A stretch of 64,000 nt of DNA from contig CAWIYV010000013.1 of NCBI GenBank assembly GCA_963840455.1, positions 1-64,000 of the forward strand, written 5' to 3'. The first letter of the stretch is position 1. Each line of letters opens with the position of its first letter. The notes under the pieces are model-generated. The model was not told the origin of the DNA and did not search any database. It saw only the letters and a program-made list of their open reading frames with translations. Below, in pieces: positions 20,527 to 55,480 of this stretch. The DNA comes from Nitrospirota bacterium (GTDB lineage: Bacteria > Nitrospirota > UBA9217). Made by a program: the position numbers and the translations under genes.

Positions 20527-20563
20527 GGCAGGATTTTCAAGCCGCTGAATTATCCAAAGCGCC

Positions 20564-20731
20564 CTGCATCCCGTGAACAGGTCCACGCACAAGCATGCCC
20601 GGGAACAGGATCGGCAAATCATCGATCATGCCTGCGCGTGCGAAGCGAAAGCGCACACGGATTGTAGGAACAGCAGGCTAACGGAGAGGACCTCGTGGCA
20701 TGCCTGCGTGGGCCTGGGAACGGCGGTGCAG
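20564..20731 (+). repeat. Palindromic module C (variant interior)
   Basis: Termini ctgcatcccgtgaacaggtccacgcacaagcatgc ... gcatgcctgcgtgggcctg..ggtgcag-A run are shared with the copies at 43919 and 46430. Confidence 0.8.
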
Positions 20732-20753
20732 AAAAAAAGAGACTCGCTCTTTT

Positions 20754-20939
20754 TTGGCAACCCGGTGGCTCCGCTGTGCTAAGCATGCGGTATACGGGTA
20801 CTCGTTCATGTCACGGTCTGTCATTCCCGGCAGCGCTACCCCTGCGGACGCGCTGCTTTATTGTCTGTTCTTGTTCGGACTGGGTACCGGCATGCATTAC
20901 GCACAGTCGTCGCAGCCGGGCTGCCCGGGGTTTGAGTAA
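20754..20939 (+). repeat. Rod-like palindromic module B, copy 2
   Basis: Direct repeat of 20341-20526; ends GGGGTTTGAGTAA. Confidence 0.85.
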
Positions 20940-20942
20940 AAC

Positions 20943-20977
20943 AAAAAAAGGCAGGTGGTCTTGTCGACCTTCCTGCC
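20943..20977 (-). terminator. Intrinsic terminator of thrC-metB
   Basis: GGCAGG..GGTC/GACC..CCTGCC stem with a T7 run on the minus strand. Confidence 0.6.
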
Positions 20978-34149: not shown

Positions 34150-34329
34150 CTTTTGTCACCTTTCTTGCTTGCCCGAAGAAAGGTGACCCAAAGAAGAGCA
34201 CCCGGCGAAAATCCTTTACGGCATGCTCGGTCGTCCTCGGTACATTTTAGAAACTCGCCCTTCGGGCTCAGACAGTCTAAAATGTTTAACCCTCGGACTC
34301 GGTCGCCTGCCTAGATTTTCGCATGGGGA
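34150..34329. repeat. Palindromic module F
   Basis: GTCACCTTTCTT/AAGAAAGGTGAC hairpin, then nested GCGAAAATC/GATTTTCGC and ACATTTTAGA/TCTAAAATGT stems with an AACTCG-CCCTTCGGG-CTCAGACA apex. Confidence 0.75.
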
Positions 34330-34346
34330 CTGCTTAAGTCTTCGCC

Positions 34347-34531
34347 TTACTCAACCCCCGCACGTCTCCGGAGCGGACCTACGAAATTATTGGGCACCCG
34401 TCTTGGCCTAAGGAAGCGTCCCGACAGGGCGTCCGCGCATGTCCGAGGCCGCAGGCCGAGTTTGCGCGGGCGAGCGGACGTGGCCTTAGACGGGTCAATA
34501 ATTTCGTTCAGGACGCGAAGGGGATGTGCAA
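34347..34531 (-). repeat. Rod-like palindromic module D, copy 1
   Basis: Reverse complement matches 43705-43887 and 46214-46399. Confidence 0.9.
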
Positions 34532-34815
34532 AAAAAAGATCACAACGGCAGAGCGATGAGCTGCCCAAAAAAGAAAAAATCATGCATTTTTTCCGACGAC
34601 GATCGGGCATGTAAAGCAGGGCAGAGCACGGCGCTGCTCAATTAAAGAAGATCACGATCAGGCCAAAGGTCAAGCTGGCCCTCTAGGTTCACAGTTTCGA
34701 ATATCATTGACACCCGCCGTTCCTTTTGCTACTGTCATTACAGGGCCAATCAGCGAAGAGGGCGACCATGCCTTCACCCATCAGGCCCGATTTCCGTGAG
34801 CGAAAGGAGCTCCCC

Positions 34816-43599: not shown

Positions 43600-43704
43600 A
43601 TTATTCTGCAGACCTAGCGCACAGCAATACATTATTATGAGGAAATTGGTTTTGTTCAGAGCAGCACGTGTCTAGCTATTGCGCCTGGTTGTTTGTGGAT
43701 GTTG

Positions 43705-44164
43705 TTGCACATCTCTTTCGCGTCCTGAATGCGTTTCTTGACCCATCTAAGGCCACGTCCGCTCGATCGCGCAAACTCGGCCTTCGGCCTCGAACATGCG
43801 CATCGCCCTGCGGGACGCGGCCTTAGGCCAAGATGGGTGCCCAAGAAACGCATAGGTCCGCTCCAGAGACGTGCGGAGTTTGGGTAAAAGCCTCAAGCTT
43901 CTGCCTTTCCTAAGGCCTCTGCATCCCGTGAGCAGGTACGCGCACACGCATGCGGAAGCAACAACAGCCAGTGCCACCACGAAGACAGGCAGACACGGCC
44001 GAGCACTGATCCTCAGTGCGAGGGGAAGTGCTGCGATGTCTGAAAAAGCCCGTTATCAGAACCGGCAGTGCATGCCTGCGCGGACCTGTGAGCCGGGGTG
44101 CAGAAAAAAAATCATCGCCGTGTATACTCGACCCACTTGCGAAGGAGAAGACCCGAAAAAAATA
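43705..44164 (+). repeat. Composite repeat D + C + E, copy 1 (no MITE insertions)
   Basis: D 43705-43887, C 43919-44103, tail to 44164; colinear with 46214-46888. Confidence 0.9.
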
Positions 44165-44180
44165 TGAATGAGGTGCTCTC

Positions 44181-46115
44181 TTATTCACGGTTTCCCAATC
44201 CTTCAAAGAACCTCCTGAACTCCTCCCGGTCGTCGGTGATGCGGCATTTGGGGATCGATCGTAAGAAGGACCTGCCGTAGTTCTTCGTCATGATGCGCGA
44301 GTCCAGCACGGCGACCGCCCCTTTGTCCGTCTTCGTCCTGATGAGCCTGCCGAACCCCTGCCGGAACAACAGCGTCGCCTGCGGCACCTGATACTCATAG
44401 AACGGGTTCTTCAGCCGCTCCATGCGCGCCTCGATGAGCGGCTCGTCGGGCACGGCAAAGGGGAGCTTGGCGATCACGACGCACTGGAGTGCCTCGCCCG
44501 GGATATCGATGCCCTGCCAGAACGAGGCGGTGCCGAGCAGCACGGCGTTCGGGACCTCCTTGAACTGCTCTACCAGGCGGTAGGCCGGCATCTCGCCCTG
44601 GCACAGGATGCCGAGCTGCGGCAAGGCGCCTCGCAGCGTTCCCTTTGTCTTCCTGAGCTGGCTGTAGCTCGTGAACAGCACGAGCGTCCGGCCGCCGGTG
44701 ACGCCGAGTATCGTGAGGAGCTCCTTCTCGAACCGCTCCTGATATCCTGCAGCCTGCTGGTCGTCAAGGCCCGGCGAGATGTAGAGCAGGGCCTGGTTCT
44801 CGAAGTCGAAGGGCGAATCGAGCAGCAGCTCCGCGGGCGCGTCCAGGCCGACCCTTCCTTTTATATACTCGAAGGACCCAGCTGCCGAGAGCGTGGCCGA
44901 GGTCAGCACCGCGGTGTCGAGCCTGCCGAAGAGATGCTCCCGCAGGGTCTCGGCGATGTCGATGGGCGAGGCCACAAGGCGGTACTTCTTGTTCTCGCGC
45001 TCGGCCCAGTAGACAAAGCCCTCCTGCCCCTGGTCAAGATTGTGACGGATGGCGGACGCGAGACCGCCTGCCCTGCCCGCGAAGGCCCGCACCTCCTGCT
45101 CTTCCTCGTGCGTGTTCGCCTTGAGCGACAGGAGTGTGTCCTTCAGCTGGCTGAGGGGACCGGAAAGGATGTCGGGGACGATGTTCGGCCGGCGCACCCG
45201 GAGGACCGGCTCCTGCTTCAGCGCGTCGTGGAGGTTCAGGAAGAAGTTCTCGGCGGTGAGCCGGAGATCGTCCACGAGGTCGCGCGCGGTCCGGGCCGTG
45301 TGGTCCTGGATGGCGAGCCGGGTGAGCATCCCTTTGCGAGTCCGCTGGCTCAGGAGATTGTCCAGGAGGTAGCGGACCGAGTAGTTGGACACCTCGACGC
45401 CCAGGTAGTCCGTGGCCACGTCCTCGATCTGATGCGCTTCGTCGAACACGACGGCCTGGTGCTGGGGCAGGACGTTCCCGCCCGTGGCCATGTCGGCAAA
45501 GAAGAGGTGGTGGTTCGCCACGAGCACCTGGGCCTGCTGCTCCAGGAGCTTCCCCTTCTGGTAGAAACAGTCCTTGTAGCTGTGGCACTCCCTGCCGAAG
45601 CAGAGGTCCGCCTCGCGGTTCGCCTTTGCCCAGAGCGCCCCGGTGGGTTCGAAGGACAGCTCGCTCCGGAGGCCGGTGCGGGTATGCGTGGACCATTCGA
45701 AGAGCCGGTTCAGCGGTTCCACCTCGTTCTGCTCATAGAGGTCGCCCATGCGCAGCTGGTCGAAGCGCCGGAGGCAGAGGTAGTTCTCGCCGCCTACGCA
45801 GAGCGCCACACGGAAGTCGCCGATCACGGTCTTGAGGAAGGGGATGTCCTTTTTCACGATCTGCTGCTGGAGGGCCTTGGTGTAGGTGGCAACGACGACG
45901 CGGCAGTTCTCCTCGCGCGCCCAGAGTACGAGAGGCACAAGGTAGGCAAGGCTCTTGCCCACGCCGGTGCCCGCCTCGACGACGAGGTGGGTCTTGCTGC
46001 GGAGCGCCTTCTGGACGGCCTCGGCCATTTCCAGCTGCTGGGGCCGAAACTCGTAGTCATCGCCCATGGCGGCGGCGACGAGCCCGGCCTCTCCGAGGAT
46101 GTCGGTTATCTTCAT
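44181..46115 (-). CDS. dinG: DinG/YoaA-family ATP-dependent DNA helicase
   Basis: EAGTGVGKS, Fe-S cysteines, DEAH, TSATL and QGFGRLIR motifs. Confidence 0.9.
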   Translation of the reverse strand: MKITDILGEAGLVAAAMGDDYEFRPQQLEMAEAVQKALRSKTHLVVEAGTGVGKSLAYLVPLVLWAREENCRVVVATYTKALQQQIVKKDIPFLKTVIGDFRVALCVGGENYLCLRRFDQLRMGDLYEQNEVEPLNRLFEWSTHTRTGLRSELSFEPTGALWAKANREADLCFGRECHSYKDCFYQKGKLLEQQAQVLVANHHLFFADMATGGNVLPQHQAVVFDEAHQIEDVATDYLGVEVSNYSVRYLLDNLLSQRTRKGMLTRLAIQDHTARTARDLVDDLRLTAENFFLNLHDALKQEPVLRVRRPNIVPDILSGPLSQLKDTLLSLKANTHEEEQEVRAFAGRAGGLASAIRHNLDQGQEGFVYWAERENKKYRLVASPIDIAETLREHLFGRLDTAVLTSATLSAAGSFEYIKGRVGLDAPAELLLDSPFDFENQALLYISPGLDDQQAAGYQERFEKELLTILGVTGGRTLVLFTSYSQLRKTKGTLRGALPQLGILCQGEMPAYRLVEQFKEVPNAVLLGTASFWQGIDIPGEALQCVVIAKLPFAVPDEPLIEARMERLKNPFYEYQVPQATLLFRQGFGRLIRTKTDKGAVAVLDSRIMTKNYGRSFLRSIPKCRITDDREEFRRFFEGLGNRE

Positions 46116-46443
46116 GGGCAGGTACAGTACCACGGGGAAGGGGAGAAGGCAAACGGTTTCCTGAAAGACCCTTTGAAAGAAGGGAAGGGAAGGACACAAT
46201 CTGTTTGTTTATTTTGCACATCCCTTTCACGTCCTTAACGAAATTTCTGACCCGTCTAAGGTCACGTCCGCTCGCCCGCACAAACTCGGCCTGAGGCCTC
46301 AGACATGCGCGTTCGCCCTGACGGGACGCTACCTTTGGCCATGACAGGTGCCCCAGAAATTTCGTAGGTCCGCTCCAGGGACGTACGGAGTTTGGGTAAA
46401 GCCTTAAGCTTCTGTCTTTCCCAAGGCCCCTGCATCCCGTGAA

Positions 46444-46546
46444 TCCAGGAGCGAGCTCAGCCCCGCAGTTTGGGCTCAGCGAGCGACTAGAATAAAGACT
46501 ACCCTGAGGATCGAAGCTCCATGCAGTTTGCTTTTGGGAGCTTCAA
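46444..46546 (+). mobile_element. MITE family A inserted in module C
   Basis: catcccGTGAA|element|CAGGT vs the empty site catcccGTGAA|CAGGT at 20573. Confidence 0.9.
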
Positions 46547-46706
46547 CAGGTGCGCGCACAAGCATGCGAAAGCAAAAAAAGCCAGTGCCACCACGAAGGC
46601 AGGCAGACACGGCCGAGCCCGGCTGTGCCGGGCGAGGGGAAGTGCTGCGATGTCTGAAAAAGCTCAGTATCAGAACCAGCAGTGCATGCCTGCGCGAACC
46701 TGTGAA

Positions 46707-46812
46707 TCCAGGAGCGAGCGCATCCCGCGTGTTTTCGCGGGATTAGCGAACGATTAGGATAAACTTACCTTGAGGATCGTATCTCCATGCCTCTTGCTGC
46801 TGGGAGATACAA
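46707..46812 (+). mobile_element. MITE family A (divergent copy) inserted in module C
   Basis: acctGTGAA|element|CCGGGGTGCAG vs the empty site acctGTGAG|CCGGGGTGCAG at 44088. Confidence 0.9.
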
Positions 46813-46969
46813 CCGGGGTGCAGAAAAAAGAAGAGCAGCGCGGTGCATACTCGACTCACTTTCGATGGAAAAGACCCGAAAGAAAATAGTGCCTTTTTTA
46901 CGGCCGTACGTTTCCGCCTCGTAATGCAATGCCTTTTCAACTGACGGCAAGTGTTGTATCATACCTCCC

Positions 46970-55393: not shown

Positions 55394-55480
55394 GCCGAAG
55401 TGGTGGAACTGGTAGACGCGCTGCGTTCAGGGCGCAGTGGGAGCAATCCCGTGGGGGTTCGAGTCCCCCCTTCGGCACCA
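55394..55480 (+). tRNA. tRNA-Leu (CAG)
   Basis: Acceptor stem GCCGAAG/CTTCGGC, anticodon arm CTGCG-TTCAGGG-CGCAG, long variable arm, GGTTCGAGTCC, encoded CCA. Confidence 0.98.

Follow-up and report, generated by a model that had tools for sequence, protein, structure and literature searches.

What is a rod-like hairpin of about 185 nucleotides, present in three diverged but well paired copies between the genes of an uncultured Nitrospirota? The copies lie in the window, the stretch of 64,000 nucleotides analyzed here, which belongs to a genome (G000, the source genome) of 4.03 Mb in 14 contigs with ~58% GC. An earlier note on this DNA proposed that the repeat is either a structured non-coding RNA or a single-stranded DNA (ssDNA) substrate for a mobilizing enzyme. 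Our analysis identifies the ~185-nt rod as the conserved internal core of a MITE, a miniature transposon, and not as a free-standing element. We consider it probable that this MITE is moved by an ISL3-family DDE transposase and that the fold of its core is kept by selection.

Copies, fold and distribution of the rod

Similarity searches located rod copies at 43700-43890 (copy 1, plus strand, the feature under study), 46212-46399 (copy 2, plus strand) and 34347-34534 (copy 3, minus strand), confirming the places given earlier (43705-43887, 46214-46399 and, on the minus strand, 34347-34531). For copy 1, a long imperfect hairpin, the assignment also draws on its fold and on alignments A3 and A4, described below. 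The 12-bp stems quoted in the earlier note are perfectly complementary in each of the three copies, and the apical motif AACTCG-GCC-nnn-GGC-CTC(G/A)(G/A)ACA is present as described. The quoted stem pairs as claimed but is not the outermost, with three more helices extending the rod to its TTGCAC.../...GTGCGG ends. Similarly, the motif G(A/G)GTT(T)G(G/A)GTAA has the sequence reported but does not end the element, since similarity continues beyond it. Covariation had been called complete, a slight overstatement as copy 2 carries two mismatches in the second stem (pairs 49/142 and 53/138). The aligned window copies show 82% mean column identity, and RNAalifold run on these three alone returned 69 pairs, 11 with two-sided change. 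Folding of 236 nt from 43700 yielded -108.3 kcal/mol for copy 1 versus -77.8 ± 4.7 kcal/mol for 200 dinucleotide shuffles, none of which was as good; across the window copies, the ~185-nt rod fold has a z of about -6.5. The reverse strand of copy 1 folds to -114.9 kcal/mol (z -6.6) and the longer interval 43640-44170 to -221.8 kcal/mol (z -5.4).

In the source genome, 44 BLAST and 42 nhmmer matches merged into 39 rod elements, every one of which (39/39) is intergenic by a crude gene call (3335 genes, 80% coding). Within the same family, 32 of 64 genomes had the rod, representing 11 of 19 genera. An exact 20-mer of the core, searched with one genome per species over 185,579 species, returned 61 stretches, all in MAGs labeled Nitrospirota, Nitrospirae or Nitrospiraceae; plasmid and phage collections contained no rod match. 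The earlier view that the rod belongs to no named Rfam family held, with no match on either strand in gathering or E-value mode. Rfam 15 cmscan of the whole window reported only a tRNA at 55394-55477, and copies searched with their flanks in E-value mode gave only chance-level matches (11.9-13.8 bits, E 1.1-9.5), far below thresholds. Literature searches found no description of a rod MITE in Nitrospirota. The earlier note had also suggested looking for a recurrent neighboring gene, and none adjoins the copies: 73 neighbors gave only a few weak paralogue pairs. Among 59 rod loci, the only real shared neighbor families were sigma-54 activators and response regulators.

Architecture, ends and movement of the MITE

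Similarity around copy 1 spans 43653-44160, well past the rod borders. Immediately upstream is module U2 (43653-43699, plus strand), common to six other copies with matches starting at 43653-43658. Downstream are tail hairpins and module G (43891-44109, plus strand), the latter a long hairpin of its own that follows the rod in longer composites and has 44 matches in the source genome. Elsewhere the rod is followed by module F, itself a rod of ~180 bp with 37 BLAST matches in the source genome; the rod+F pairing recurs in another genus (G072), where F is 95% identical. Target duplications were absent directly at the borders of 13 rod+F units (the T-run and the end of F), and the true borders lie further out, at inverted repeats. 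These repeats contain a motif of the type GGGTCTTC...GTGGGT that lies outside the rod composites and was first noticed in a comparison of one locus between the source genome and G003, a genome of the same genus. The pattern had 16 matches in the source genome as opposed to 0 for a reversed control pattern. All non-IS inward-facing motif pairs 100-1700 bp apart in this genome, six pairs with spacings of 514-760 bp, enclose exactly one rod each. The MITE unit is 480-830 bp long, with ~24-bp terminal inverted repeats (TIRs) and 8-bp AT-rich target duplications, and is ordered as left TIR, sometimes a short module, rod, then either F or a tail with G, and right TIR. Every rod adjoins either F or the tail. 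Rod composites fall within the definition of MITEs given in two reviews (PMC3184786, PMC10969869). The rod, earlier treated as an element in its own right, lies within a larger unit bounded by TIRs with ISL3-like ends and by 8-bp target duplications.

The ends of individual copies were located by pattern searches, as nhmmer with a 43-nt end module recovered only 7 same-strand copies and was too insensitive. A looser TIR search, with thresholds set after the motif had been seen, covered 36 rods of the source genome (35 of the 39 merged elements and one insert-riddled copy; four 5'-truncated fragments were left out). A left TIR was detected in 14, a right TIR in 11 and both in 8, versus 0 and 0 in reversed sequences, and 19 of 36 had no detectable TIR. 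All eight rods with both TIRs displayed a target duplication matching at 7 of 8 bases; for mismatched partners of the same genome the mean was 4.38, and 5.4% of 56 pairs reached 7 or more. In relatives, a left TIR was detected at 36 of 66 rods, a right TIR at 34 and both at 23. The 22 target duplications scored there, with one place counted twice, comprised 11 that were perfect (8/8), 5 that matched at 7/8 and the rest at 6, 6, 6, 4, 4 and 2, compared to a null mean of 4.4 with 2.8% at 7 or more.

Within the window, the right TIR of MITE copy 1 (44131-44154, minus strand) has 0 mismatches to the pattern and can be aligned with ISL3 ends; the left TIR is degenerate, with none detected upstream of U2. 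MITE copy 2 is 696 bp long (46182-46877, plus strand), and its right TIR (46854-46877, minus strand) carries 4 substitutions. Its exact borders are marked by GAAAGAA at 46175-46181 and 46878-46884, and the corresponding sequence occurs once in G003, where the site is empty. Neither inverted repeat was detected for MITE copy 3, whose rod is followed by module F (34150-34330, minus strand), a second rod-like hairpin with a perfect 12-bp terminal hairpin. MITE copies differ by indels of 1-2 bases. Small open reading frames (ORFs) at 43871-44167, across copy 1, and at 46521-46757, in copy 2, were rejected as genes: neither translation is protein-like, the first judged from reading the translation only, and the second has no Pfam match.

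All three window sites are empty in G003, in which the helicase gene is 96.5% identical in DNA to that of the source genome. The third site, occupied here by the copy 3 intergenic insert, is also empty in G002, G004 and G005. MITE copy 1 adjoins the 3' end of the DinG-like helicase gene (window 44155-44199), where the last codons read GLGNRE-stop as opposed to GLR-stop in G003. The first 18 nt of the longest helicase ORF (46182-46199) fall within MITE copy 2; the true start of the helicase is probably further in, at an ATG near 46115. The same subfamily is present near C8:79 kb in both G000 and G003, ~110 bp apart and in opposite orientation.

Rod composites were also seen at sites of larger rearrangement. 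A ~2-kb block of the source genome (L183, C4:102203-104262) consists of rod+F, a gene of 256 aa and a second rod+F. It is absent at the matching G003 site, which has only a truncated F, and the 256-aa gene is found on another G003 contig, an arrangement that suggests repeat-mediated movement of a gene. At a second locus (L045, G003 C519), synteny with G000 C8:47938-49592 and C11:262854-263997 breaks exactly at a rod composite; the source-genome copy at that break (C8:49520-50020) contains three inserts and has lost its 3' arm.

The source genome harbors two 1378-bp IS copies whose protein matches Pfam DDE_Tnp_ISL3 at 2.8e-71. Both carry the TIR motif and perfect 8-bp target duplications (TTTTTTCT and ATTAATCA), the same duplication length as the MITE. 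Of the two MITE ends, one resembles IRL (best match 17/24) and the other IRR (best match 22/24). Other multi-copy IS of the genome (rve-type and IS30-like) were considered as a source of the ends and rejected, having ends unlike those of the MITE. Among genomes with a transposase homologue of at least 79% identity, G000, G011 and G058 have rods and G062, G002, G054 and G075 have none (E ≤ 1e-25), whereas rod-rich G003, G072 and G064 have no such homologue. Rods were found in 3 of 7 genomes with a homologue and in 29 of 57 without one, a comparison that carries little weight either way, given the frequent loss of IS copies from MAGs, many of them fragmented here. Because homologues do not track rods, the mobilizing partner was deduced from the MITE ends and not from co-occurrence, and by resemblance of these ends an ISL3 transposase is the most likely mobilizer.

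Rods and their partners are themselves accompanied, and interrupted, by other repeats. Repeat family E, with units of ~85-110 bp, is much more common than rods (294 nhmmer matches in the source genome, 256 with an intact start). Its units start with GAATCCAGGAGCGAGC, end with GGGAGCTT, enclose a variable inner hairpin and often form head-to-tail arrays (e.g., G000 C1:6574-6936). In the window, family E matched nothing in Rfam, and none of its copies is near the Y1 genes. Two fixed places in rods harbor nested E units, and one E unit follows the tail of copy 2 (46443-46546, plus strand), beyond which the sequence equivalent to 43933-44091 resumes at 46547-46705. The insert-riddled rod without a 3' arm, at the synteny break above, is another such case. 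Tiny hairpin inserts of 20-45 bp, ending in sequences like CCTGCAC/GTGCAGG or CCCCGAC/GTCGGG, occupy recurrent places in rods, the apical loop included, both in relatives (L086, L089, L108, L109, L070, L069 and L087) and in G000 (C14:206435-206683, C14:527823-527979 and C11:869373-869592). G-type modules also occur without a rod. At 20545-20946 of the window, an inverted pair of ~200 bp each makes a ~400-bp palindrome, and similar pairs lie at C11:180546-180957, C11:507198-507613, C4:165498-165916 and C6:8939-9323.

Covariation and the maintenance of the fold

We compiled the 23 uninterrupted copies of the source genome (alignment A3) and combined them with 61 of 62 full-length relative copies (alignment A4), leaving out one 266-nt copy with a large insert. 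A4 contains 84 sequences, 80 of them distinct, from 11 genera. A 59-pair structure was tested against 500 shuffles and against slid controls, using a pair-count measure with false positives of 0-1% in trials. Overall, 91.7% of cells in the 84 copies were paired (shuffles, 87.7 ± 0.1%; slid controls, at most 48%). Two-sided change was found at 27 pairs, versus 14.3 ± 1.7 in shuffles, with 0/500 as high and slid controls at no more than 14, and in 200 cells, versus 58.5 ± 5.7 in shuffles and at most 32 in slid controls. Thus, the covariation first seen in three copies is retained in a larger alignment, and in the lower stems pairing is kept rather than sequence. The signal resides in the lower two-thirds of the rod, where one 9-pair helix, the variable stem, shows two-sided changes at 8 pairs. 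For the apical third, two candidate pairings can be drawn, one 48% paired with some two-sided changes versus one 87.5% paired with none. Mapped onto a FastTree tree built from the other columns, nine covarying pairs change from one Watson-Crick state to another 2 to 15 times; given how short and poorly resolved the tree is, these counts are upper estimates. A single founder split is insufficient for the covarying pairs of the rod.

Outside the variable stem, which exists in 40 distinct versions among the 84 copies, conservation is high: of 188 rod positions, 138 reach 90% conservation or more, with the unpaired apical bases among them. The core is also more conserved than the MITE ends, with mean column identity of 86% in A3 versus 74% in A5. 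Core identity between genera is 85-94%, with other-genus copies reaching 92-94%, whereas DNA identity of the orthologous helicase gene is only ~85% between members of the genus. For DDE transposition the ends suffice; it explains neither a core conserved above the ends nor its covariation. The rod may, tentatively, be a functional folded module on which the MITE family depends, whether as a cis-acting fold for the transposition machinery or a host factor or as a cargo RNA spread by the transposon. Such a role, if true, would explain why the core is conserved beyond the ends across 11 genera, why it is shared among different ends and partners, and why it has a covarying stem with so many versions.

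Somewhat doubtful is the specific proposal that the rod is a cargo non-coding RNA carried by the MITE, with a transcript that stabilizes or terminates neighboring mRNAs, serves as a processing site or acts in trans. Consistent with a cargo are the identity of the core across genera, as compared with the helicase gene, and its occurrence in composites with different TIR subtypes and with either partner module, F or G. Stable MITE transcript stem-loops are described in reviews, along with transcription of bcr1 and compensatory changes in it (PMC3184786, PMC10969869). The strand preference of the fold points the same way. With RNA parameters, 77 of 78 copies fold better as the reverse strand (mean -88.8 versus -77.0 kcal/mol), as do 76 of 78 when DNA parameters are used, an advantage of 10-12 kcal/mol that arises in part because a conserved A x C mismatch of the plus strand becomes G.U on the reverse strand. 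With one consensus common to all 78 copies, this preference is a property of the family and not the outcome of 78 independent tests. Against a cargo RNA, the rod matches no Rfam family, a conserved promoter-like or terminator-like signal was not found in rod copies, and orientation relative to the two neighboring genes is unbiased (14 opposite/opposite, 13 same/same and 8 + 4 mixed among 39 elements). Moreover, departures from pairing confined to single copies comprise 55 G.U, 90 A.C and 106 others. G.U is not in excess on either strand, which suggests decay in place and not selection at the level of the host, and the single-copy mismatches look random, like decay after insertion.

Covariation could also be only apparent, with no selection on the fold, if the arms of a palindrome were kept alike by repair or template switching in the hairpin. 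Two-sided changes are indeed frequent, G.U intermediates are not favored over A.C, and the variable stem is AT-rich and nearly self-palindromic. Nonetheless, we judge this unlikely because homogenization of the arms should erase asymmetric bulges, internal loops and unpaired apical bases, yet these are conserved in the 84 copies of 11 genera. Variation, in addition, falls mainly in one stem and not evenly on all arms, and single copies decay by unpaired single changes.

Least probable, and unsupported as the earlier note's suggestion of a mobilizing enzyme of HUH/RAYT type, is that the rod is a mobile hairpin, the ssDNA substrate of a HUH/Y1 (RAYT or IS200/IS605-type) enzyme, that invaded the MITE as family E invaded rods: its long hairpin, conserved apex and covarying stem recall REPINs, in which compensatory changes are described as common (PMC3116915), other small repeats do nest inside rods and the source genome has two Y1_Tnp matches, but neither Y1 gene is flanked by rods, E units or other modules, the TnpB domain (PF07282) has 0 matches there, orientation relative to local GC skew is split 21:17 without replication-strand bias, direct repeats and a fixed target are absent from the borders of the rod itself in 13 rod+F units, and each rod inside the six TIR pairs is single and, like all others, joined to F or the tail. 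The weaker Y1_Tnp match adjoins another repeat of ~110 bp, unrelated to rods, at G000 C14:237525-237640, and that repeat recurs at ~20 other places.

Two ideas about parts of the rod were also discarded. As a 'guide' matching its flanks, the variable stem shared a longest word of 6.27 with them compared to 6.17 ± 0.08 for permuted partners, with 23 of 200 permutations as high. Likeness to an integron attC site, considered on sequence alone, failed at the 5' end, which does not have the expected core-site partner.

We return to the rod as the core of a MITE probably mobilized by an ISL3-family transposase. According to this model, the DDE transposase, supplied in trans, would bind the ~24-bp TIRs and insert the MITE into AT-rich intergenic DNA, creating the 8-bp target duplication. 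The rod fold would be a cis-acting module of the MITE, read in folded form as ssDNA or as a transcript. Its maintenance would result from selection among element lineages, with only those copies that have an intact hairpin and an intact apical sequence giving rise to new copies, and single copies presumably decaying after insertion.

Comparison with known systems

A striking signal of 'covarying structured RNA' can arise from the core of a miniature transposon, and a DDE transposase of the ISL3 type replaces the hairpin-cutting enzymes suggested at first as the probable mobilizer. Between the genes of this uncultured Nitrospirota lineage lie several families of rod-like repeats, nested within one another and located at rearrangement points, which matters for assembly, annotation and comparison of these MAGs. 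BOX elements are another mosaic intergenic repeat. Like the BIMEs of E. coli and the NIMEs of Neisseria, as summarized in PMC3184786, the rods form intergenic clusters of several short structured modules in varying order; BIME and NIME units as described there are much shorter, whereas the rods here are ~100-200 nt and transposon ends delimit at least one of the assemblies.

Hairpin elements of two other kinds resemble the rod in part. REPINs consist of paired short REPs and are associated with a Y1 transposase gene that is present once and flanked by REPs (PMC3116915). In that account they share with rods an intergenic location, conserved parts joined by a freely varying paired segment and persistence within a lineage. 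Unlike the REPIN/RAYT system portrayed there, the rod MITE has DDE-type ends and target duplications, and Y1 genes have no flanking rods. IS200/IS605-type hairpin elements (PATE) differ similarly, in that the rod unit has TIRs and target duplications and shows neither strand bias nor TnpB.

A closer parallel in fold is bcr1 of the Bacillus cereus group, a ~155-bp element described as a cruciform with two stem-loops and 5-bp direct repeats, for which transcription is reported (PMC3184786). Going by that description, both elements are mobile, flanked by direct repeats and variable in position between close strains, and in both compensatory changes keep a double-stranded fold. The rod MITE differs from the bcr1 described there in its 8-bp duplications and single long rod. 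With ISL3-family IS it shares GGnTCTTC...TGGG-type ends and 8-bp AT-rich target duplications but, unlike these, has no transposase gene and an interior of unrelated hairpin modules.

Prokaryotic MITEs such as Correia, ERIC, Chunjie and QMITE, as presented in two reviews (PMC3184786, PMC10969869), likewise have TIRs, a target-site duplication and no transposase gene, and are found as many copies in AT-rich intergenic DNA with ends like those of a resident IS and a very stable predicted stem-loop. Unlike the MITEs covered there, the rod unit is modular (rod + F, or rod + tail + G) and is itself a target of small repeats, and its core persists throughout 11 genera. Very stable hairpin folds are well known among MITEs, and the rod MITE belongs to this known kind, here from an uncultured Nitrospirota lineage. 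What sets it apart is a core better conserved than its ends and common to composites with different ends and partner modules, which raises the wider question of why the core of a MITE should be more constrained than its ends.
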